Virus record (IMG/VR): IMGVR_UViG_3300009609_000018
Coordinates: 1-42,412 of that record
DNA: 42,412 bases
Source of the DNA: a virus
Direction: 5' to 3' (one strand)
Part shown: one piece after another, positions 5,818-24,522 of the stretch
Position numbering within the stretch: the first letter of the stretch is position 1
Layout of the letters: each line of letters starts with the position of its first letter
The notes under the pieces: model-generated
The model's database searches: none
The model's input: the letters and a program-made list of their open reading frames with translations, nothing else
Told to the model about the DNA's origin: nothing
Made by a program: the position numbers and the translations under genes

Positions 5818-8800
5818 ATGTCAACGCTGAATGACAGCATTTTGACGGCCACTGGCGGGCCTACAGTAAATGATGGTCTGCTGGATTGGTTTCGTGATGG
5901 GGGGGCGGGTGCAAACTCGCCCCTTCAAGATGCAGAGCGGGAGTGGCTAATCATACAGCTACTATTCCCCGTCGTTGTGCTCGATACAAATAATGATTTG
6001 TGGATGAAGTTTCTGCCCCCTCCGGGCGCTATTAATGACCGCCAATTTGCCTACTGGTTGGCTGGTCCTCAACTTCCCACAGCCCTCCTGATTCCGATTG
6101 GTGAAACGGCCAGTGCCGTTAGTCCTGCGGATGCGTCCGTATTTATTACGGTTGCAACTGACCAATTTGTCAAAAAGCAGATCAACGGCGGCGCTCTTAT
6201 TAACCTATATGATTGGGTTATTCAGGGTGTAGCGGCTGACTTTGAATTGATGGCTTCTGGCGCTTCCGGTGACACTGGAAACCTGTCCGGATCGGCCTTT
6301 AATACATGGCTACCTCCCCCGGTGTCATGGACGTTTCTAAACTCCGACGATACACCTAATAATAAGGCTATTAGCTTTACCCTGTCTGTCCGTAGAGCTT
6401 CGGACGGTCTTTTGCTCAGTCAAGCCCCAGTCAGTTTGCAGGCGAATGTGACTGCGGCTCCGATCATCCCAACTGCCGATTTGCAGCCCGTTAGTCAGAC
6501 GGCGGCGGCGGTTGCTCCGGCTGACGCTTCCGTTGATGTTTCGATTAGTAGCGATGGCTTCGTCAAGCGACTGCTAAATGGGGCTTCGTTTGCGAACCTA
6601 TATCAATGGCTATTGACTGGTGTTAATACTGACTTTGAATTCAGGGCTTCTAACCTCACTGGTGACACTGCAAATCTCACTGGATCGCCATTTAATGTGT
6701 GGCAGCAAGCCCCTATCGGCTGGACAATTCTAAATTCTGACAATACGGCTGGCTCCAAAGCGTGTAGCTGGACGGTTGAAGTTCGTAGAGTCTCCGACTT
6801 CATCGTATTGGATACGACGACGTTTACCATTCAGGCTGATGTTACGCCACAGCCAGCGAACGCTGATTTGCAGCCGATTAGCGAAACGTCTTCTGCTCAA
6901 AGCCCCGCCAATTCTACCATTAACATTCAGGTATTGACTAATGGCACTGTTACCAAGTCGGTTAATGGTGGCGCTGCTACGGTCCTATATACGTGGATTG
7001 TTAATGGTGTAGCGGCCGATTTTGAGTTCCGGCCCTTCGGCCTTACTGGCGACTCGGGGAACCTTACTGGTTCAGCCTTTGGATCGTTCATTGCACCCCC
7101 GCTTACGTTCACATTGACGAATAATGATGATGCGGCAGGCACTAAATCTGTCGATTTCTCGCTAGACGTTCGCCGGGTTGTGGGTAGTGTGCTACTGGAT
7201 ACCACAACGGTTAGCCTAGATGCGACGGTCACGCCCCCGGCTCCGAATGCCGATTTGCAGCCTATTTCGGAGACTGCTGCAACCAACAGCCCGACGGATG
7301 CAACCGTCTACATTGAGGTAGCAGCGGATGGGTTTGTCAAGCGTTCCATTAATGGCGGCGCGCTGACTAACCTATATCAATGGCTGGTGACAGGCACTTC
7401 TACTGACTTTCAATTCCAAGGTTCTGCTGCTACTGGTAATACTGGAAACATCGTAGGTACGGCCTTCGGATCGTACTTTGCTGCGCCTGTGTCGTGGACG
7501 CTGACAAATCCCGATAATGCTACCAGTTCCAAGGTAGTCGATTTTACCCTGTCCGTGCGCCGGGTTCCGGACAACACGGTTTTGGATACGACGACGGTTC
7601 ACATGGTAGCTAATGTGACCCTGCTTCCGAATGCGGATTTGTTGCCCGTCAATCAGCAAGCTACGGCCAATAGTCCTAGTAACTCTTCTGTCACCCTCCG
7701 GGTTGAATCAACTGGTTTTGTGACTGTTTCGCTCAATGGCGGGGCGTTTACTAACCTCTACAATTATATCGTAAATGGCGTAGCGGCTGACTTTGAGATT
7801 AGAGGCTCTAATCTTACTGGCGATACTGGCAATATGTCGGGGGATGCTTTCAACGTATGGTTGCCTATTGCACCCGTAACATGGACGCTTACTAATCCTG
7901 ATGATATTGCTAGCACTAAGAACACTAGCTGGACGGTGGAGATTCGTAGGGTATTGGATCAAGTGGTATTGGATACAACTACGTTCCAAGCTACGGCTAT
8001 TATTCAGGCGGTTTCGGATGCTGAATTGTTTTTCACGGAAGCGCATTCGACGGCCGTTAGTCCAGGCAATGCGACCTCTAAGATCGAGATTGCTACGGAC
8101 GGGGATGTAAAGGTTCAGATTAATGGCGGGTTGAATGTATCCCAATATACATGGCTATTGGCTGGCCTAGCATCTGATTTTCAGTTCTTTGCTTCTACCC
8201 CTAATGGTGATGCTGGAAACGTTACCGGTTCTGCCTTTAATACATGGTTGGCCCCTCCAGTGTCATGGACACTAACGAATTCCAGTGATATACCGGGCCT
8301 CTTGGCGGCTGACTGGCAGGTGCAAGTTCGTAGGGCCTCAGATAGTGTTGTAATTGACGCTGCTACCTTTGACACTACGGCTGAAGTTACGCCCGCTGCG
8401 TTCAATCCCGCTGCTGTGCTATTCGGTGCCGGTGAACTTGGCTGCTGGTTCGATGCTTCTGACCTGTCAACCATGTGGCAGAATTCGGCGGGAACTACGC
8501 CTGTTACGGCCGTCGAACAGCCGGTAGGAAAATGGAATGACAAGTCCGGTCGTGGTGTCTCGGCTACGCAAGCTACGGCTGCATCGCGGCCTACTCTCAG
8601 CGCACGTAAGAATCATCTTACATATAGTGAGGACTTTAATCAGTCTTATTGGACAAAGACCGGATGCACTACCAACATTGCTGGACAGGAGCTATTTGAA
8701 ACCTCTGCCAATAGCGTTCACTCCTTTAGCCGTGCTGCTGTTATTGCGGCCGTTCCTAACCAAACGGCTCTATTCGGTGCAACTGCGTCTTTCCAGATAT

Positions 8801-9741
8801 TCCCAGATGGCAGAACTAAGTGCGCTGTATTGATCGGTAACAACACACTCGCTAGGTTCTATCGGGTGATGTTTGATCTTACAGGTTCCGGATCGGTAAT
8901 AGGTACACCGGAGAATGTAGGGCCGCTGGCGAATGTCTCCCACTCCATTACCAATATCGGTGGCTCTTATGTTTGCACTGTTTCGGCAGGATTTGCCGCA
9001 GAGACAGGTGGCATAGGAACTGCTGTATATGCCGTTGATGACACCCCCTCTATTACGTATACTGGTTCGGCTGGATTGACTGCACTATCTATTGAAAAGG
9101 CGCAGTTTGAGTGGGGGTATACTTCCACCCTCGCGGGGCCTGCCGGCAACCTCACTACTGGCTATCAGTCAAGTAGCGGCGCACTAAGCTATGATACTGT
9201 TGGATTCCCGCACTATCTCCGTTGTGATGGCGTCGATGATTGGATGCAGACTACGGTAATGAATTTGACGGCATCCAATGAACTCACTTCGATGGTCGGA
9301 GTATTCAAGCTAAGTGACAATTCACAGGCTGTCATCTATGAGTTCTCCAATTCAACCGTTAGCAATGCCGGTGTCTTTGGATGGGTTTGCCCGCTAACCG
9401 CTGGCCCTAATATTGTATGGCGGTCACGCGGAACCACGACGGCCGATGCTAGCCTTACGTCTGGGTTTGCTTCGCCTATTGCTATTGTGGCAACTGGTGA
9501 GTCCGACATATCGGCTCCGCTATCTAGAATCAGAGCCAATGGCCAGACGGCTCAGAATGTGGCTACACAGGGCACAGGTAACTTCGGTAATTTCGCAGCC
9601 TATTTTGCCCGTCGTGGCGGTTCCACGAACACATTTACAGGAGGGCTGGGACAGATCATAATTAGAGGCACAGCTACAACTCTTACAGACATCCAAAACA
9701 CAGAAGCGTTTATTGCAGCAAAGATGGGAGTAATACCATGA
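5818..9741 (+). CDS. 1307-aa structural protein: N-terminal ~88-aa anchor, six tandem ~129-aa domains, then a C-terminal LamG/concanavalin-like region
   Basis: Repeat register read from the translation (ADLQP... starts at aa 220, 349, 478 and 606). C-terminal motifs WFDASDLSTMWQNSAGTTPVT...GKWNDKSGRGVSATQATAASRPTL and LRCDGVDDWMQT are typical of LamG-type phage fibre and decoration proteins. Confidence 0.85.
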   Translation: MSTLNDSILTATGGPTVNDGLLDWFRDGGAGANSPLQDAEREWLIIQLLFPVVVLDTNNDLWMKFLPPPGAINDRQFAYWLAGPQLPTALLIPIGETASAVSPADASVFITVATDQFVKKQINGGALINLYDWVIQGVAADFELMASGASGDTGNLSGSAFNTWLPPPVSWTFLNSDDTPNNKAISFTLSVRRASDGLLLSQAPVSLQANVTAAPIIPTADLQPVSQTAAAVAPADASVDVSISSDGFVKRLLNGASFANLYQWLLTGVNTDFEFRASNLTGDTANLTGSPFNVWQQAPIGWTILNSDNTAGSKACSWTVEVRRVSDFIVLDTTTFTIQADVTPQPANADLQPISETSSAQSPANSTINIQVLTNGTVTKSVNGGAATVLYTWIVNGVAADFEFRPFGLTGDSGNLTGSAFGSFIAPPLTFTLTNNDDAAGTKSVDFSLDVRRVVGSVLLDTTTVSLDATVTPPAPNADLQPISETAATNSPTDATVYIEVAADGFVKRSINGGALTNLYQWLVTGTSTDFQFQGSAATGNTGNIVGTAFGSYFAAPVSWTLTNPDNATSSKVVDFTLSVRRVPDNTVLDTTTVHMVANVTLLPNADLLPVNQQATANSPSNSSVTLRVESTGFVTVSLNGGAFTNLYNYIVNGVAADFEIRGSNLTGDTGNMSGDAFNVWLPIAPVTWTLTNPDDIASTKNTSWTVEIRRVLDQVVLDTTTFQATAIIQAVSDAELFFTEAHSTAVSPGNATSKIEIATDGDVKVQINGGLNVSQYTWLLAGLASDFQFFASTPNGDAGNVTGSAFNTWLAPPVSWTLTNSSDIPGLLAADWQVQVRRASDSVVIDAATFDTTAEVTPAAFNPAAVLFGAGELGCWFDASDLSTMWQNSAGTTPVTAVEQPVGKWNDKSGRGVSATQATAASRPTLSARKNHLTYSEDFNQSYWTKTGCTTNIAGQELFETSANSVHSFSRAAVIAAVPNQTALFGATASFQIFPDGRTKCAVLIGNNTLARFYRVMFDLTGSGSVIGTPENVGPLANVSHSITNIGGSYVCTVSAGFAAETGGIGTAVYAVDDTPSITYTGSAGLTALSIEKAQFEWGYTSTLAGPAGNLTTGYQSSSGALSYDTVGFPHYLRCDGVDDWMQTTVMNLTASNELTSMVGVFKLSDNSQAVIYEFSNSTVSNAGVFGWVCPLTAGPNIVWRSRGTTTADASLTSGFASPIAIVATGESDISAPLSRIRANGQTAQNVATQGTGNFGNFAAYFARRGGSTNTFTGGLGQIIIRGTATTLTDIQNTEAFIAAKMGVIP
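6082..8406 (+). repeat. Six in-frame tandem coding repeats with a period of 384-387 nt (~129 aa)
   Basis: Unit starts at nt 6082, 6475, 6862, 7249, 7633 and 8020. The conserved skeleton is ...SPxxAxVxIxV...G.V.K..NGG....LY.W...G.A.DFE........GD.GN..GS.F..W...P..WTL.N.D.....K......V.VRR..D..VLDTTT......V. Confidence 0.9.
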
Positions 9742-17863: not shown

Positions 17864-20809
17864 ATGCCTCGTAACGGCTCTGGTGGATACGACCTTCCGG
17901 CCGGTATCAACCCTGTAGTAACGCAGACGCTTATCACGTCTAATTGGGCAAACACGACCCTCAATGACGTGGCGGTCGCGCTTACCAATAGTATAGCACG
18001 TGATGGACAGACCCTTCCTACGGCTAACCTGCCTATGGGCGGGTTCGCTCACACAGGTGCGGGTGATCCTGCATCCCGTGATATGTATGACACCCTAGGC
18101 TACGTGCAAGATGGTAGGCATTTCCGTCTTACTAACGTGGCTGGTGTAAACCAGATCACGGCGACGCTTCCCGGTGGCGCGGTGGCGCTATCCGTGGGGC
18201 AGATTGTCCAGCTACTTCCGGCTAACAATAATACCGGTGCCGTTACCCTGAATATCAATGGCATCGGTGCGCGGCCTGTCACTACCGACCTAGGCAATCC
18301 ACTTGCCACCGGAAACCTAGTCGCCAACAGACCCTATTTGCTATCCTATACTGGCACGTCATGGGTAATGATTACTGCCGGTGGTGGTAGCTCGGGCATC
18401 GCTCAGGCCGCCATGAGCGGCTGGGACAGGCCCACGGCGAACGGCCCGTACCCTCCGATCACGGCCGTAGACGCGACGACTGTAGCCATTCCTGCGGGCA
18501 CTGGCAGAATCATCCGTCCATCGGCCCGCGATTTGTCGGGTGTGACAGAGGTTTCTTGGGCGGCCCAGAATGTGGCATTGAGCTTTGTGGCTACCTCATG
18601 GAATACCATTCTGGGTATCAATGCGCTGGGTCAAGTCGTGCAATTCACGGGCAACTTTAGCCCGGTGTGGGCACGTGAAAATATCCTGATCGGTTCCGTT
18701 GCGCATGTGAATGGTCAAATCAACGAAATCAATACCGTCCCCGCGATCTTTGGAGATATGACTTACGCCTCATACGACGTAAGTAGCCTGTTGCACAATA
18801 CGCTAATCAGTGGTGGGCGGCTGCTAGCAAATGCGGTTAGTCCGTTCCATGTGGACTTGCAGGCGGGTGCTATCTTTACGTTAGGTGGCGATGCTAACGA
18901 TGTTAACGATCCCAATAAGCGGGATTTCCCTTCTTCCTTTGACCTGAGTTTCTTCCCGGTCACAGGTAACAATACGGTAGCGGCGATTACCCAAAACGTT
19001 CCGGTGACGAACTACGACCCAAATGGGGCAGGCGCAATCGTAGCTATCCCCGGTGGCGCTACTACTACTTCCATTCACCGCATGTATCTACTGGCCGGGG
19101 AGTTCATATTCCTGTACGGTCAGAAGACCTATACGGACCTTACCACGGCGCTATCTCAGCTAGGTGTGGATGACTCTGCTACTATCTTCCCATCGAAGCT
19201 GACTAATGCCACCTTCCTGAGCTACATTGTAGCGCAGAAGAATAACCTTGATCTAAAGGACACAACTACTGCGCGCCTTCTGACTAGGGGCGGCACCAGT
19301 TTCAGCATCGGTTCCGCTAGCTCCATTTCCGAAGCCCCGATCAATGGTCTTATCTATGGCCGTAAGGATGCAGGCTGGTCGGAAGCTGTGCCCGCTCCAA
19401 AGGGGCCATCGTCTACGCTACGTCAAATCTTCTTCAATACTAACCTGCTTCCCCGCTGGTCACTGACGGTAAATGATACGCCAGAGGGCGGCGGTAATAC
19501 CGGCTCTAGTCTTGAGATTCGTCGGTATGATGATGCTGGCGTCTTGATAAATTCCCCGGTTGCCATTAATCGCACCACAGGAGAGGTTTTTACAACTGCT
19601 TCTCTTACGGTTCAAGGTGCCGCTAGCCACATCACTGCGGGGGGTGACGTAAGGGCGAATAGCAACTTTGCATCTACCAATACTTCTGTAGTGCTGGCAA
19701 CGTCGGCGGCCGGTAATGTATTCCTGCGGCCTAGTGGTGCTGCATCTTCGGTCGGGCAAACTACCATTGCTTCCACTGGCCTGATGAACGTTGGCGGTAA
19801 TGTCAATGCTGCTGGCCTTATTGCTAGGGCTTCCGGTGGTGGCGAGGGTGGCGAACTACAGCTTCTCGGCGACGGTGGTGCGAGTACCGCTATCATTGAC
19901 AACGTGGGGCCGCAAACCCGGTTCTTCGGTGGTGCCGCTGCACCGATGACTTTCGACCGGGAAACTGGTGCCTTGACTGTGCCTCTGTCAATCACAGCCG
20001 GGCAAGGGGTCATTGCGAACCAGAATTTCGGTTCTTCCACTAATGTCGCTGTGCTGGGTCCGGTTGCTGCTGTTGCGGGCACGGTTCTACTGCGGCCTAA
20101 TGGCGTTAATGTCTCTACAAATGAGGTAACGATATCCAATAACGGTAATGTTACTGCACCGGGCAGCTTGTTCGGTTTCTCTATTGTCTCCCAACAAGAC
20201 TTTACGGCTACTGGTGTTAACTGTGTATTAGCTGCGCAAGGCGGCGGCATATTCCTGCGGCCAAATGGTGCTGGTAGTGCGGTAGGTCAAGCCATTCTTG
20301 GTGCTGCTGGTAATTTCTCTTGCGCTGACGTTACTGCTAGTAACAATGTCAATGCCACGGGACGGGTTACTTCTGGCACTCACTTCAATGGCCTAGGAGT
20401 CACTACCGTTCTGTCTGCAAATGGCGGTGGCGGCGGCTCCATCCTGTTCCGGCCGCAAGGTGCCGACAATGGCACCAATCAAGCCACGCTCGATGCTGCT
20501 GGTAATTTTAGCTCTGTAAATCAGACTGCAACGTCCGACCAAATTCTTAAAGAAAATATTTCTCCGAAAGCCCCGCGTAGAAATCTGGCTGATCTAATCG
20601 CCCTGTATACCTACGTTTGGAAGAGCGATGGCCGTGCTGGCATGGGGCAAATTGCGCAACAGGTTCGGGAGCACGCGCCGGAGTATGTCCACGAAGGAAC
20701 TGATGGTATCCTGAGTATTGATAAGGCCAGTCTGGCAATGGAGTGCATACTAGGTCTAGCGGAGCGGGTAAAAGAACTAGAGGATAAAGTCAATGACCTT
20801 GCCGGCTAG
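17864..20809 (+). CDS. Tail fibre/spike with a C-terminal peptidase S74 intramolecular chaperone domain
   Basis: AGGAGG RBS. N-terminus is YDLPAGINPVVTQTLITSNWANTTLNDVAVALTNSIARDG. There are four (F/L)(L/F)RPxG repeat units at nt ~19722, 20089, 20253 and 20443. The S74 motif SDQILKENISP...GQIAQQVREHAPEYV...SIDKASL starts at nt 20534. Confidence 0.9.
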   Translation: MPRNGSGGYDLPAGINPVVTQTLITSNWANTTLNDVAVALTNSIARDGQTLPTANLPMGGFAHTGAGDPASRDMYDTLGYVQDGRHFRLTNVAGVNQITATLPGGAVALSVGQIVQLLPANNNTGAVTLNINGIGARPVTTDLGNPLATGNLVANRPYLLSYTGTSWVMITAGGGSSGIAQAAMSGWDRPTANGPYPPITAVDATTVAIPAGTGRIIRPSARDLSGVTEVSWAAQNVALSFVATSWNTILGINALGQVVQFTGNFSPVWARENILIGSVAHVNGQINEINTVPAIFGDMTYASYDVSSLLHNTLISGGRLLANAVSPFHVDLQAGAIFTLGGDANDVNDPNKRDFPSSFDLSFFPVTGNNTVAAITQNVPVTNYDPNGAGAIVAIPGGATTTSIHRMYLLAGEFIFLYGQKTYTDLTTALSQLGVDDSATIFPSKLTNATFLSYIVAQKNNLDLKDTTTARLLTRGGTSFSIGSASSISEAPINGLIYGRKDAGWSEAVPAPKGPSSTLRQIFFNTNLLPRWSLTVNDTPEGGGNTGSSLEIRRYDDAGVLINSPVAINRTTGEVFTTASLTVQGAASHITAGGDVRANSNFASTNTSVVLATSAAGNVFLRPSGAASSVGQTTIASTGLMNVGGNVNAAGLIARASGGGEGGELQLLGDGGASTAIIDNVGPQTRFFGGAAAPMTFDRETGALTVPLSITAGQGVIANQNFGSSTNVAVLGPVAAVAGTVLLRPNGVNVSTNEVTISNNGNVTAPGSLFGFSIVSQQDFTATGVNCVLAAQGGGIFLRPNGAGSAVGQAILGAAGNFSCADVTASNNVNATGRVTSGTHFNGLGVTTVLSANGGGGGSILFRPQGADNGTNQATLDAAGNFSSVNQTATSDQILKENISPKAPRRNLADLIALYTYVWKSDGRAGMGQIAQQVREHAPEYVHEGTDGILSIDKASLAMECILGLAERVKELEDKVNDLAG

Positions 20810-21356
20810 CCCCCCTATTACCAAGCTACAAATCTATACGGAATTCGGGGTTCCGTTAAACACGCCCTTTACCCAACTGGTGAGGGGCGGAATCTACGTG
20901 CCCAATACACCGGCTAATGCGGCCATTCCTACGACCCCGCCACTCAATATGTTGCAGTTCCTAGGGGCCTCTGCGCAGCCACCGATTGACTTCCAGAATG
21001 CGACTTGTAGTGCTGGGGCGCTAGCTCCAAACGATGCTACGGCAACGCTTAATATCAATGCTGGTGGCACGGTTACACGCGGCATTAATAATGGTGCGCC
21101 ACAGACCCTTTATACGTGGCTGCTATCGGGGGCCGCAAGTGCATGGGAAGTGGTGGCTACTTTGCAGTCGGGCAATACCAACCTAGGCACATACGGAACG
21201 CCCCTGAATCTGGGGTCCGGTCGGTCGTGGGGATGCTTCTTCGGCGGCAACTCAGGATCGCAGTCCGCTACAGTGCTGCTACAGTTCCGGCCAGCCGGGG
21301 GCGGGGCCTTCGTGGATTCCTGCACGTTCAGCCTAGACGCCACGGTCGAGAGCTAA
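20793..21356 (+). CDS. 187-aa protein whose C-terminal ~108 aa is a seventh, stand-alone copy of the repeat domain in the 1307-aa protein
   Basis: GAGGA RBS and a 17-nt overlap with the fibre gene. ATLNINAGGTVTRGINNGAPQTLYTWLLSGAASAWEV...FSLDATV aligns by eye with the repeat skeleton. Confidence 0.75.
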   Translation: MTLPASPPITKLQIYTEFGVPLNTPFTQLVRGGIYVPNTPANAAIPTTPPLNMLQFLGASAQPPIDFQNATCSAGALAPNDATATLNINAGGTVTRGINNGAPQTLYTWLLSGAASAWEVVATLQSGNTNLGTYGTPLNLGSGRSWGCFFGGNSGSQSATVLLQFRPAGGGAFVDSCTFSLDATVES

Positions 21357-21371
21357 AGTGCCAGGCACAAC

Positions 21372-21402
21372 AAAGCCCCCGGAGTCAGGGGCCGGAGGCT
21401 TT
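21372..21402. terminator. Bidirectional hairpin between the convergent blocks
   Basis: AAAGCCCCCGG / CCGGAGGCTTT: 11-bp stem with one C-A mismatch and a 9-nt loop. A/T runs on both flanks give a U-tract on either strand. Confidence 0.55.
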
Positions 21403-21539: not shown

Positions 21540-21785
21540 TTAATCGACCTTTACATACATCGGTTTTGCGGTGGCGTAATTGTGGTCCCGCATGGTTGCA
21601 CCAAACTCGTCTTCCGTTTTGGCATAGCCTAGAACCCGGTCCTCATCGTCCATGATGGCCCAACCTACTCGCATTAGGGGGGATTCACTGTACCCCTTTT
21701 TCACTATCCATGCGACGCCCACTAGGACACCGATCGCAAAGATCAGGATAATCATTGTGAGAGTGACGGCAATTTCAGGGGTCAT
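21540..21785 (-). CDS. Small membrane-anchored protein (N-terminal TM helix)
   Basis: TM segment IAVTLTMIILIFAIGVLVGVAWIV. 4-nt overlap with the upstream gene. Last gene of the minus-strand block. Confidence 0.65.
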   Translation of the reverse strand: MTPEIAVTLTMIILIFAIGVLVGVAWIVKKGYSESPLMRVGWAIMDDEDRVLGYAKTEDEFGATMRDHNYATAKPMYVKVD

Positions 21786-22613: not shown

Positions 22614-22639
22614 GCCGGGGGGTGCGGAATCCCCCCGGC
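22614..22639 (-). terminator. Intrinsic terminator after the curlin-like gene
   Basis: Perfect 9-bp GC stem GCCGGGGGG/CCCCCCGGC with an 8-nt loop, followed on the minus strand by CATGTTTTC. Confidence 0.55.
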
Positions 22640-22697
22640 TCTGAACCTATCGGCTATGATCCCCCACATAGGAGGGGAGCCAACAGGTTTTTACTGG

Positions 22698-23081
22698 TTA
22701 CGGTGCGACGTAGATATAGACCGTCTGCATCTGGTTCTGGCCGAAGCCGATACCCGTCTGCACGGCAACGTTCTGGTTCGCAGAAGCGGCGAGGCCGAGG
22801 GCTGCGGCCGAACCCTGCTGCTGGGTGAAGCCGATGGAACCCGACTGTGCGGCACTGTCATTGCCGGAAAGCTGGGTGGCGCCGAACGACTGATTGCCGG
22901 CGATGGCGGACGACTGCTGGCCGGTGACGCCGATGAGGGCGGCGGTACTGCCACCAACCGACGAACTGCCAACCTGCGACTGTGCGCCGGACTCGAAGGA
23001 GCCAGCGGCGATGCCCAGATCAACGGCACCGGCCGAGAACGAAGCGGCGGCGAGTGCAATTGCGAGTGCGATGAGCTTCAT
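22698..23081 (-). CDS. Secreted Gly/Ser/Gln/Ala/Asn-rich repeat protein (curlin/functional-amyloid-like composition)
   Basis: Sec signal peptide MKLIALAIALAAASFSAGA|VD. The mature part has ~22-aa quasi-repeats rich in Q, G, S, N and A and ends in VYIYVAP. The overlapping ORFs 22611..23144(+) and 22691..23059(-) are shadows. Confidence 0.7.
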   Translation of the reverse strand: MKLIALAIALAAASFSAGAVDLGIAAGSFESGAQSQVGSSSVGGSTAALIGVTGQQSSAIAGNQSFGATQLSGNDSAAQSGSIGFTQQQGSAAALGLAASANQNVAVQTGIGFGQNQMQTVYIYVAP

Positions 23082-23162
23082 GGTAAATCCTCTTTTTTTG
23101 AGGGGCGGGTAATACTAGCTATAGGTGCCCCGATTCCCCTATAGCCTAAGGGGGAGGGTTAG

Positions 23163-23945
23163 TTACCTTACTTTCTTGCCCTCTTCATCCAGTTCAAGAG
23201 TCTGGCCGTTGCTACCCTTGATAGTGGTAGCAGCCAGCTTCTTGCTATCCTCTGACGGCTGGGTCACTTCACCGCGCGGCTGGCGGGGCTGATAATCCTG
23301 CGGGGCCGTATGCTGTTGTGGCTGCGGCGCAGAGGGTGCGCTTTTCGGCTGCGCCACCGGCACATCCATACCAAGCAACCCAAGCTGTTCACATGCGCCC
23401 TGCGTGCGGGGTTCCTTGTCCTGCTTGGCATTGGTTTCTGCCATGCAGATTTCCCACACTTGCATGACGATCAGGCGGCTAGCCATATCATGCAAGCCTG
23501 CATTGTAGGCATTGGCGGCGGCAGTACCGAACTTTTCCGCCCTGCGGAGAGACTGGCAATTCCCGTCCATTTTCGGGCCAGATGCGCCGAGGCTCAAACC
23601 GAAGCCAGATGCACCCGCTGAAACAGTGCCGCCGCAATAGTCGGACGAGAACGATACTGCGGCTGCCAGAGGGACGGCGGCATTCGTCTTGATCTTCTGG
23701 GTGGTTGTGGTGGGGATTCGGCTGGCCTCAAAGGTCTGGCTCAGGCCCACACCAACTGACAATTCGGTGGACTGGTTTGGGTTGACCACGTTCCTGTTAT
23801 CGGAACTGGCGGCGGCACCGGAATTGCTTTCGGATACTGCGATGGCGTCGGATGACGAATTGGTGTTGACAGTGTTGTCAACTTCGACGGCGCTAGCGGC
23901 CCCGACAAACAGCAACAGCGCGGATGCAAGAATGGTCTTGCGCAT
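23163..23945 (-). CDS. Secreted protein (260 aa): Ser/Asn-rich N-terminal region, four-Cys central domain, Pro/Gln-rich linker
   Basis: Signal peptide MRKTILASALLLFVGAASA|VE. First gene downstream of the promoter-like element at 24020-24048. Confidence 0.7.
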   Translation of the reverse strand: MRKTILASALLLFVGAASAVEVDNTVNTNSSSDAIAVSESNSGAAASSDNRNVVNPNQSTELSVGVGLSQTFEASRIPTTTTQKIKTNAAVPLAAAVSFSSDYCGGTVSAGASGFGLSLGASGPKMDGNCQSLRRAEKFGTAAANAYNAGLHDMASRLIVMQVWEICMAETNAKQDKEPRTQGACEQLGLLGMDVPVAQPKSAPSAPQPQQHTAPQDYQPRQPRGEVTQPSEDSKKLAATTIKGSNGQTLELDEEGKKVR

Positions 23946-24019
23946 GATGGGATTCCTATGAGTCGGGGCGGGTAGGTTTCCGGTGGGCCTGCCCCCAAGC
24001 CCCCCGGATTAGTCAGACT

Positions 24020-24048
24020 ATATTAAGGTAAGTGATCGCCGGGGTCAA
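24020..24048 (-). promoter_or_regulatory. Sigma70-like promoter TTGACC-N17-TAATAT driving the secreted-protein cassette
   Basis: Hexamers and spacing read on the minus strand. The -35 element abuts the stop codon of the VRR-NUC gene. Confidence 0.5.
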
Positions 24049-24522
24049 CTACCGTTCGTCGGCCAAATCTGGCGGACTATCCCCCTGCGAGTCGCTCAGA
24101 ACTCGCGCAGGGGCGTACATGAACAGGGCTTGCCGTATGGTCCGAAGCATGGCGGCCGGGTCGTCCATCGAATACCGGTGCCCCCAACGCCATTGCTGGC
24201 TGATAGGGGAAAGGTCTGCGGCTATGTGCCCCGGAAGCAGGGTGTAGTAGCTATCAATCCAGCAGACGACGAAGGAAGCCCCTCCTATGAGCCTCCTAGC
24301 CCGGTGCCAGCGCCTTTGGGATGGCAACATATGGATTCCGTCGCGCCAGACTTTAACCTCTAGCCAAATGTCTTGCCCCGCTTTCGCTAGGTTCAGGTCA
24401 GGGATTCCGGGGCTGGTTTGGGGGCTTTCAATGTGTGATACATGGTAGCCCATTTCCTCTGCCGATATATGAAGAAATCGGCGGAAGTCATTTTCGTTAT
24501 TGATCGTCGTCGGTTTCTTCAT
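24049..24522 (-). CDS. VRR-NUC family nuclease (PD-(D/E)xK)
   Basis: GIPDLNLAKAGQDIWLEVKV followed by LPSQRRWH matches the VRR-NUC D...ExK...Q core. Confidence 0.75.
   Translation of the reverse strand: MKKPTTINNENDFRRFLHISAEEMGYHVSHIESPQTSPGIPDLNLAKAGQDIWLEVKVWRDGIHMLPSQRRWHRARRLIGGASFVVCWIDSYYTLLPGHIAADLSPISQQWRWGHRYSMDDPAAMLRTIRQALFMYAPARVLSDSQGDSPPDLADER

Follow-up and report, generated by a model that had tools for sequence, protein, structure and literature searches.

The DNA examined here is the IMG/VR virus record IMGVR_UViG_3300009609_000018, analysed at its full length of 42,412 nucleotides (nt) and referred to below as the window. Between positions 22,614 and 24,048, it contains a small cassette of two genes, designated ORF-A and ORF-B (ORF, open reading frame). 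The two genes very probably constitute a real, mobile module of two exported proteins that belong to new families. ORF-A and ORF-B represent two small, previously undescribed and unannotated families, and no description of the pair was found in the literature. An earlier note, made from the letters of the sequence, had presented the cassette as a self-contained unit with a curlin-like product made of ~22-amino-acid (aa) repeats. This observation was partly confirmed. The features of the cassette were recovered, the repeats were not, and self-containment is no more than plausible.

The whole cassette is located on the minus strand, in the order of promoter-like site, ORF-A, ORF-B, and hairpin. 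Its features, and the gene immediately upstream, are as follows (RBS, ribosome-binding site; AF2, AlphaFold2; pLDDT, predicted local distance difference test):

24522-24049, minus strand: 157-aa gene upstream of the cassette, with its stop codon at 24049-24051
24048-24020, minus strand: sigma-70-type promoter-like site TTGACC-N17-TAATAT, with the -35 hexamer at 24048-24043 and the -10 hexamer at 24025-24020
23946..24019, minus strand: G+C-rich 5' leader of ~74 nt, with an RBS-like AGGAA ahead of the ATG
23945-23163, minus strand: ORF-A, 260 aa
23889..23945, minus strand: ORF-A signal peptide, aa 1-19, MRKTILASALLLFVGAASA, followed by VE; no Cys
23715..23888, minus strand: ORF-A Ser/Asn/Gly-rich low-complexity region, aa 20-77, AF2 pLDDT 31-37
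23361..23714, minus strand: ORF-A conserved core, aa 78-195, with four invariant Cys and a helical hairpin at aa 128-171
23163..23360, minus strand: ORF-A Pro/Gln-rich linker and short C-terminal beta-hairpin, aa 196-260, plus the stop codon
23082..23162, minus strand: A-B intergenic spacer of 81 nt, with an imperfect inverted repeat (CTATAGG...CCTATAG) and the ORF-B RBS (AGAGGA)
23081-22698, minus strand: ORF-B, 127 aa
23025..23081, minus strand: ORF-B signal peptide, aa 1-19, MKLIALAIALAAASFSAGA, followed by VD
22698..23024, minus strand: mature ORF-B, 108 aa, plus the stop codon
22604..22639, minus strand: intrinsic-terminator-like hairpin GCCGGGGGG-ATTCCGCA-CCCCCCGGC with the tail CATGTTTTCT; the hairpin itself is at 22639-22614, with 9 G-C pairs and an 8-nt loop

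Comparison with four related contigs gave dN/dS values (ratio of nonsynonymous to synonymous substitution rates) of 0.09-0.14 for ORF-A and 0.18-0.29 for ORF-B. The overall range of 0.09-0.29 indicates that both are real genes under purifying selection. The core of ORF-A is almost invariant and follows the pattern TNxAVPLAAxxSFSSDYCGGTxSxGAS..GxSxG..P..D..CQSLRRAEKFGxAAANA...W.IC...AC. In the family alignment, the invariant Cys residues are C104, C130, C167, and C185, which would be consistent with an oxidising compartment. The Ser/Asn/Gly(/Gln)-rich region of ORF-A varies several-fold in length among the homologues, and the aligned bacterial and larger phage versions contain QGQ repeats. The Ser/Asn-rich N-terminal region, the four Cys residues, and the Pro/Gln-rich linker previously described for this 260-aa partner are all present.

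The mature ORF-B contains 16.7% G, 16.7% A, 14.8% S, and 13.9% Q, with three acidic residues and no Lys or Arg. The description of the 127-aa product as G/S/Q/A-rich and ending in VYIYV was correct; the complete C-terminus is VYIYVAP. The G+C content at third codon positions (GC3) of ORF-B is 0.766, the top value among the window genes sampled. All its relatives (n = 28) are 126-138 aa long, and their alignment is almost gap-free. Invariant G, S, Q, and N positions occur at i, i+2, i+4 spacing. The family also has a conserved hydrophobic first strand (VDLGIA) and last strand (M..V[YW][LIV]F..P), with hydrophobic clusters at residues 20-26 and 118-125. These two strands are the most hydrophobic and best-conserved segments of the protein.

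Both products carry an N-terminal signal with a K/R n-region, a hydrophobic core, and an A-x-A site (ASA before VE in ORF-A, and AGA before VD in ORF-B). Judged by a simple heuristic on these three elements, the signal-peptide features recur in 28 of 28 ORF-B relatives and in 20 of 26 ORF-A relatives; the remaining six ORF-A relatives apparently have mis-called starts. The Sec signal peptides proposed for both ORFs therefore look genuine by this heuristic. The signal peptide of ORF-A has no Cys, so the protein is not a lipoprotein. A match to spanins, which had been named as a finding against the proposal, was found for neither protein. There is no lipobox Cys, no retained N-terminal transmembrane segment, no PHROG lysis match, and no fixed lysis context; in the predicted folds, ORF-A would be mostly disordered with one helical hairpin, and ORF-B would be all-beta.

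More than 130 relatives of ORF-A were found in a collection of 5.8 billion proteins, nearly all of them metagenomic and with no Pfam domain. An exhaustive search with a profile of the ORF-A core gave only 94 clusters (50% identity) among 1.84 billion representative proteins. Neither the 50,697 cultured phage records nor the 72,556 plasmid records searched contained a relative, and a search of 185,579 species genomes yielded only 6 loci: two in Novosphingobium, one in a Caenibius metagenome-assembled genome (MAG), one in an alphaproteobacterial MAG, and two on short, apparently phage-derived MAG contigs. The protein search added a third chromosome of Novosphingobium (sp. 9) with the pair. In IMG/VR, the pair is carried by 25 contigs of 6-65 kb.

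The libraries Pfam, NCBIfam, PHROGs, and PADLOC gave no above-threshold match for ORF-A, ORF-B, or the bacterial and distant relatives tested. The only library matches were a sub-threshold one to YadA_anchor and compositional ones (New_glue, Extensin, and ser-rich). Nor did any of these proteins match a PDB sequence. A single-sequence match of ORF-A to M. tuberculosis FabH (E = 1e-4) vanished when the family profile was used, and was treated as spurious. A YadA-like trimeric anchor (PF03895) was also rejected for ORF-B: the match reached 16 bits (cut-off 22.7, E = 0.013) for the window protein only, no passenger domain is present, and Pro is the terminal residue throughout the family.

The pairing of the two genes was examined in 40 fetched loci, some of them redundant, among which are ~25 viral contigs of IMG/VR, further contigs that look phage-like, and 5 genomes or MAGs of alphaproteobacteria. 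Every ORF of these loci was scanned with the family hidden Markov models (HMMs). ORF-B follows ORF-A immediately, on the same strand, in 36 of the 40 loci; one locus ends at the contig edge, and three show a divergent variant, in which a Gly/Ser/Ala-rich secreted protein of 145-180 aa is encoded upstream of a shorter ORF-A-like gene. More distant ORF-A-like genes likewise adjoin a gene for a small Gly/Ser/Thr-rich secreted protein. The pairing in 36 of 40 loci, together with the similar partners of distant relatives, indicates that the ORF-A and ORF-B families form an obligate, functionally coupled pair. The divergent module with reversed gene order was located at five loci (L008, 5371-6483; L039, 3278-4351; L040, 3341-4711; L041, 5476-6783; L042, 3728-5118). 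There, the gene for a Gly/Ser/Thr/Ala-rich secreted protein of 109-194 aa immediately precedes a shorter ORF-A-like gene, whose product retains the FSSDYCGG motif. Several of these B-like proteins end in ...GFSF, ...VAGF, ...GFGR, or ...GWSR, and some of the ORF-A-like proteins share a conserved C-terminal tail, DPxIRxRLG(L/M)PPL.

The genes next to the pair vary: in several phages they belong to replication, and in others they are structural or encode peptidoglycan hydrolases. Among 136 neighbouring ORFs surveyed with Pfam, neither lysis nor defence modules were enriched. Divergently upstream of A-B, three Novosphingobium genomes have orthologous GerE/LuxR regulator genes of 75-102 aa (64-72% identical), and a longer LuxR-type gene was found in the alphaproteobacterial MAG (HTH, helix-turn-helix):

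L001, 6984-7244, minus strand: GerE/LuxR-type HTH gene, intergenic gap of 500-750 nt to A-B
L002, 7185-7493, minus strand: GerE/LuxR-type HTH gene, intergenic gap of 500-750 nt to A-B
L013, 5211-5438, minus strand: GerE/LuxR-type HTH gene, intergenic gap of 500-750 nt to A-B
L004, 4738-5430, plus strand: LuxR-type gene, 230 aa, directly upstream of the pair

The chromosomal genes around GerE-A-B are different in each of the three Novosphingobium genomes, which suggests that GerE-A-B is a mobile three-gene unit. The pair has apparently been exchanged between phages and sphingomonad chromosomes. A neighbour-joining tree of the ORF-A cores looked unreliable, probably because of uneven domain envelopes, and was not used for the direction of transfer.

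The phage itself also points to mobility. The nearest cultured relative is Stenotrophomonas phage BUCT555, whose capsid protein shares 84% identity and whose gene order is the same. BUCT555 has no A-B cassette; different accessory genes occupy the equivalent position in an otherwise syntenic genome. The cassette site is a variable region past the replication genes. Because it is absent from the syntenic BUCT555, the cassette behaves as a mobile phage moron. The proposed discrete accessory cassette behind the replication genes, with two exported products that the virion does not need, was thus recovered. Other features expected of a moron were seen at the sequence level: a promoter-like site and a hairpin flank the genes and are kept or compensated in relatives, and presence varies among related phages. 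The classical morons (lambda bor and lom, P1 sim, T5 llp, phi80/N15 cor, and T4 imm/sp) are similar in that promoter-like and terminator-like signals bracket them between core modules, their presence varies among related phages, and their products are exported and non-virion. However, A-B consists of two co-evolving proteins of novel families, neither of which is a lipoprotein or an 8-stranded outer-membrane protein (OMP). It is also common to many unrelated phage backbones and to bacterial chromosomes, and its carrier has no integrase among the ORFs scanned.

The transcription signals of the cassette were examined at the individual site level and across relatives. The promoter-like site directly abuts the stop codon of the 157-aa gene (24049-24051), as the earlier note had stated. 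On its own, the match is weak and at chance level (9/12; 7 such sites per 4 kb vs 2.7 +/- 1.9 in shuffles). The exact TTGACC-N17-TAATAT occurs once in the window, and three sites have at most one mismatch vs 0.46 expected. Both hexamers are kept in the relatives L016, L017/L011, and L018, while the spacer and flanks diverge. The 74-nt leader is nearly invariant in close relatives, although the promoter spacer upstream of it diverges. A regulatory RNA in the 5' leader or in the A-B spacer was considered and is unsupported: the folds are no better than those of shuffles (z = +1.18 for the leader hairpin, and z = -0.70 for the spacer), and Rfam gave no family match. One of the three sites with at most one mismatch, TTGACA-N17-TAATCT, is located at window positions 37834-37806 (minus strand), ~44 nt upstream of a DUF932 gene (37762-36932); it may be of the same promoter class as the cassette site.

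The predicted 9-bp GC hairpin starts ~58 nt past ORF-B. It is identical in three relatives, and L018 and L019 have different stems that are still perfectly paired through compensatory changes. A GC-rich hairpin of 10-12 bp with a T-rich tail was found within 110 nt 3' of ORF-B in ~20 of 27 non-identical loci, both bacterial and viral. ORF-B therefore appears to close a transcription unit wherever the pair occurs. For the next small gene, the RBS begins ~10 nt past the hairpin, and the RBS and ATG lie within ~20 nt. No terminator was found between the upstream replication operon and the cassette, and no promoter-like site was found for the genes downstream of the hairpin, so read-through into or out of the cassette is possible. 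A self-contained transcription unit is thus no more than plausible.

Two Sec-type exported products that are not needed by the virion, a variable genomic site, and the absence from BUCT555 make an envelope- or surface-directed role the natural reading. The host-surface remodelling suggested before was partly supported: the exported accessory pair fits an envelope-directed role, and kinship with curlin was not supported. A composite mechanism is tentatively proposed, in which ORF-B would self-assemble in the envelope, with ORF-A docking or nucleating it, and the envelope would be remodelled. The strict pairing, fixed length, polar ladders, hydrophobic end strands, lack of basic residues, and high GC3 are what would be expected of an abundant self-associating beta subunit. 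Once exported, this small, fixed-length, and probably abundant subunit would associate with itself to form a beta-sheet polymer or oligomer, either periplasmic or on the outer membrane. The arm of ORF-A is disordered, its invariant Gly/Ser-rich segment carries a disulfide-stapled hairpin, and its spacer is Pro-rich; with this make-up, ORF-A looks like a partner that may dock, nucleate, or anchor ORF-B. The net effect would be a remodelled envelope of the infected cell. The benefit to the phage would most plausibly be exclusion or masking against adsorption or entry of further phages, or else adhesion or aggregation. On sphingomonad chromosomes, the pair might serve as an envelope or matrix factor whose conditional expression is set by a dedicated LuxR/GerE regulator.

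Several results weigh against this composite mechanism. The AF2 models are of low confidence. For ORF-B, four long beta strands (21-46, 51-71, 76-96, and 101-126) in two long hairpins were predicted with a pLDDT of 64.2; ORF-A is mostly disordered (overall pLDDT 48.7), with a confident prediction only at the helical hairpin 128-171. ORF-A was tried as a protein containing an ORF-B-like segment, in the style of CsgB and CsgA, and this was rejected (hhalign aligned 5 columns, probability 0.4%). There is no dedicated outer-membrane secretion component beside the pair, which leaves surface exposure unexplained. PADLOC gave no exclusion or defence link for either protein or the bacterial homologues. 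The window ORFs scanned include no recognisable holin, endolysin, or spanin, which leaves room for a lysis role, and no integrase was found among them. If the phage is lytic, classical lysogenic conversion would not apply.

It is unlikely that the pair forms an outer-membrane pore or envelope permeabiliser. ORF-B would then be a beta-barrel oligomer aided by ORF-A, and its function would be to assist lysis, to replace a spanin or disruptin, or to form a channel for release or uptake. The two long beta-hairpins of the AF2 model would fit a pore, and the only structural neighbours of ORF-B are stems of oligomeric pores. These Foldseek neighbours are the phi29 and Andhra tail knob, anthrax protective antigen (PA), iota Ib, CDTb, lysenin, MACPF, and CsgG. 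However, they are non-significant; searches against PDB and BFVD gave nothing at E <= 1e-3, and every match had a template-modelling (TM) score below 0.35. The four long antiparallel strands and the weak YadA_anchor and Foldseek matches thus recall pore stems and YadA anchors, but nothing is significant, and other family members have no YadA match. ORF-B has no continuous hydrophobic transmembrane belt; its conserved hydrophobic positions are sparse and located at the strand ends. Some divergent B-like partners end in ...GFSF or ...VAGF, resembling the OMP beta-signal, whereas the ORF-B family ends in an invariant Pro with no aromatic residue. The lack of recognisable lysis genes in the window, where an unrelated 1307-aa ORF takes the place of the BUCT555 lysis block, would also suit a pore. 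A peptidoglycan hydrolase lies within three genes of the pair in 4 of 24 loci, but this is about chance for a six-gene neighbourhood by a rough estimate, and the adjoining modules differ among phages. Moreover, the chromosomal copies under a LuxR-type regulator and the host-type promoter beside replication genes are poorly suited to a lethal lysis factor.

A soluble periplasmic pair for superinfection exclusion or injection blocking, of the P1 Sim or T4 Imm/Sp type, is also of low probability. Such a pair would form no polymer, and its target would be a component of the envelope required by incoming phages. Phage accessory genes commonly encode exported exclusion proteins, and the Sec-type signals on both proteins, the moron architecture, the variable genomic position, and the lack of an outer-membrane export partner are all in line with this reading. 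However, there is no homology to known exclusion or defence proteins. The extreme G/A/S/Q content, the absence of K/R, and the fixed length of ORF-B look structural, unlike a ligand binder. Distribution over many unrelated phage backbones, together with regulated chromosomal copies, would also be unusual for a receptor-specific factor.

It is very improbable that ORF-B is a bacteriocin-like secreted toxin with ORF-A as its cognate helper or immunity protein. ORF-B is small, exported, and strictly paired with a second gene, and its Gly/Ala/Ser-rich composition is similar to that of class II microcins. However, it has a Sec signal and no double-glycine leader, there is no ABC exporter nearby, and no known route across the outer membrane is encoded; ORF-A, for its part, is secreted and largely disordered and has twice the size of ORF-B, in contrast to the small membrane proteins that confer immunity.

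Kinship with the curli or Fap families, as suggested in the earlier note, did not survive the profile, repeat, and gene-content comparisons. The composition of ORF-B (rich in G/S/Q/A/N), its Sec signal, the two adjacent genes in a minor-plus-major layout, and the LuxR-type regulator across the ~500-750-nt intergenic region of the bacterial copies are similar to those of curli (CsgA/CsgB with CsgD). We take the bacterial GerE-A-B layout to recall the csgD and csgBA arrangement. However, a profile HMM search for the curlin family gave no Curlin_rpt (PF07012) or other Pfam match at E <= 1 in ORF-B, three relatives (P0132 and the L001 and L002 partners), or three divergent B-like partners; NCBIfam likewise gave no match at E <= 1 for phage or bacterial members. 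An alignment of the ORF-B family profile with E. coli CsgA by hhalign covered the signal peptide only (probability 3.9%). The ~22-aa quasi-repeats attributed to ORF-B were not found, since its self-similarity is within the shuffle range: the best 18-aa window scored 35 vs 27.3 +/- 4.6 and was matched by 19 of 200 shuffles, and the whole-diagonal sum by 170 of 200. A dot-plot of the ORF-B profile also showed weak offsets only. E. coli CsgA stood out in the same test (0 of 200 shuffles), with peaks at offsets 22-23, 45, and 67-68. ORF-B thus lacks the five ~22-aa curli repeats (S-X5-Q-X-G-X-G-N-X-A-X3-Q), and its AF2 model shows no beta-solenoid. The partner, ORF-A, is unrelated to ORF-B and no paralogue of the subunit. 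The 40 loci contain no csgE/F/G or fapF-type genes, as judged from called genes with Pfam annotation and the census of 136 neighbouring ORFs.

The Pseudomonas Fap system (FapB/FapC with FapF) is similar to A-B in that its exported subunits are Q/N/G/S/A-rich and its operon is sporadic across genomes. However, the A-B loci have no repeat-linker architecture, no FapF barrel, and no FapD protease, FapA, or FapE genes. ORF-B shows no repeats and no Pfam or NCBIfam match, and just two genes are conserved together; no explicit comparison with a FapC profile was made. The Fap subunit has a Cys-X-X-Cys tail, which is absent in ORF-B. By sequence and profile comparison, membership of curli and Fap is rejected, the pair is unrelated to either family, and a true CsgA/CsgB or Fap member would be the least probable of all the readings. 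As to amyloid character in general, the observations are the composition of ORF-B and its low-confidence all-beta prediction; the term amyloid-like can be applied to it only as a compositional analogy.

In a more far-reaching reading, A-B might be a third independent extracytoplasmic fibre or functional-amyloid-like system beside curli and Fap, although this is doubtful. It would consist of two genes with no dedicated channel, spread mainly on phages, coat or cross-link the envelope of infected cells, and be domesticated by sphingomonads under a LuxR-type regulator. The genetic layout is like that of a classical moron, and the nearest mechanistic analogies are csgBA/csgD and the exported phage exclusion proteins, neither of which is homologous. 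The curli pore genes csgGF, with no fibre subunits, have been reported in Methylophilales phage Melnitz and in pelagimyophages, and their role during infection is unknown (PMC9004378). Both cases represent a phage with part of a bacterial extracellular-fibre toolkit; however, A-B would be the converse, with candidate subunit-like proteins, no channel, and no homology to curli.

The exported accessory proteins of phages decide whether already infected cells can be infected again and how infected cells behave, and most of them are unannotated. If the pair does self-assemble in the envelope, it would amount to a mobile fibre system of minimal size and could supply a two-gene part for the engineering of surface materials. 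A role in exclusion or in lysis would instead mean a new mechanism of that kind. Direct tests are feasible, since the pair is small and clonable and is found in cultured strains of Novosphingobium, among them sp. BL-52-GroH, sp. 9, and N. organovorum.

The ~42-kb window is a podovirus-like genome. The genes for the portal, major capsid, internal virion transglycosylase, tail fibre, and terminase are located on one strand, and those for an SNF2 helicase, PolA, and a Prim-Pol on the opposite strand. The 157-aa gene upstream of the cassette had been called a nuclease. Its abutting stop codon is as described, and the nuclease identity is plausible from a motif (GIPDL...WLEVK) of the PD-(D/E)xK type. 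Its sole match is phrog_2165, labelled 'DNA helicase', which looks like a mis-annotation given the 157-aa size and the motif. The 157-aa gene (24522-24049) shares 26 nt (window 24497-24522) with the Prim-Pol primase gene (26800-24497), which suggests translational coupling.

A 1307-aa ORF with no Pfam or PHROG match (window 5818-9741, plus strand) sits where the syntenic BUCT555 has a holin, an endolysin, and two small genes. The leftward operon closes with a gene (window 21540-21785, minus strand) whose 81-aa product has a single N-terminal transmembrane segment (MTPEIAVTLTMIILIFAIGVLVGVAWIV...) and no family match; this product is a candidate holin-like or membrane accessory protein. A terminator-like hairpin, GGCCCCTGACTCCGGGGGCT then TTGTTGTG, is located at window positions 21374-21393 (minus strand) and 20793-21356 (plus strand), where the structural and leftward operons converge.

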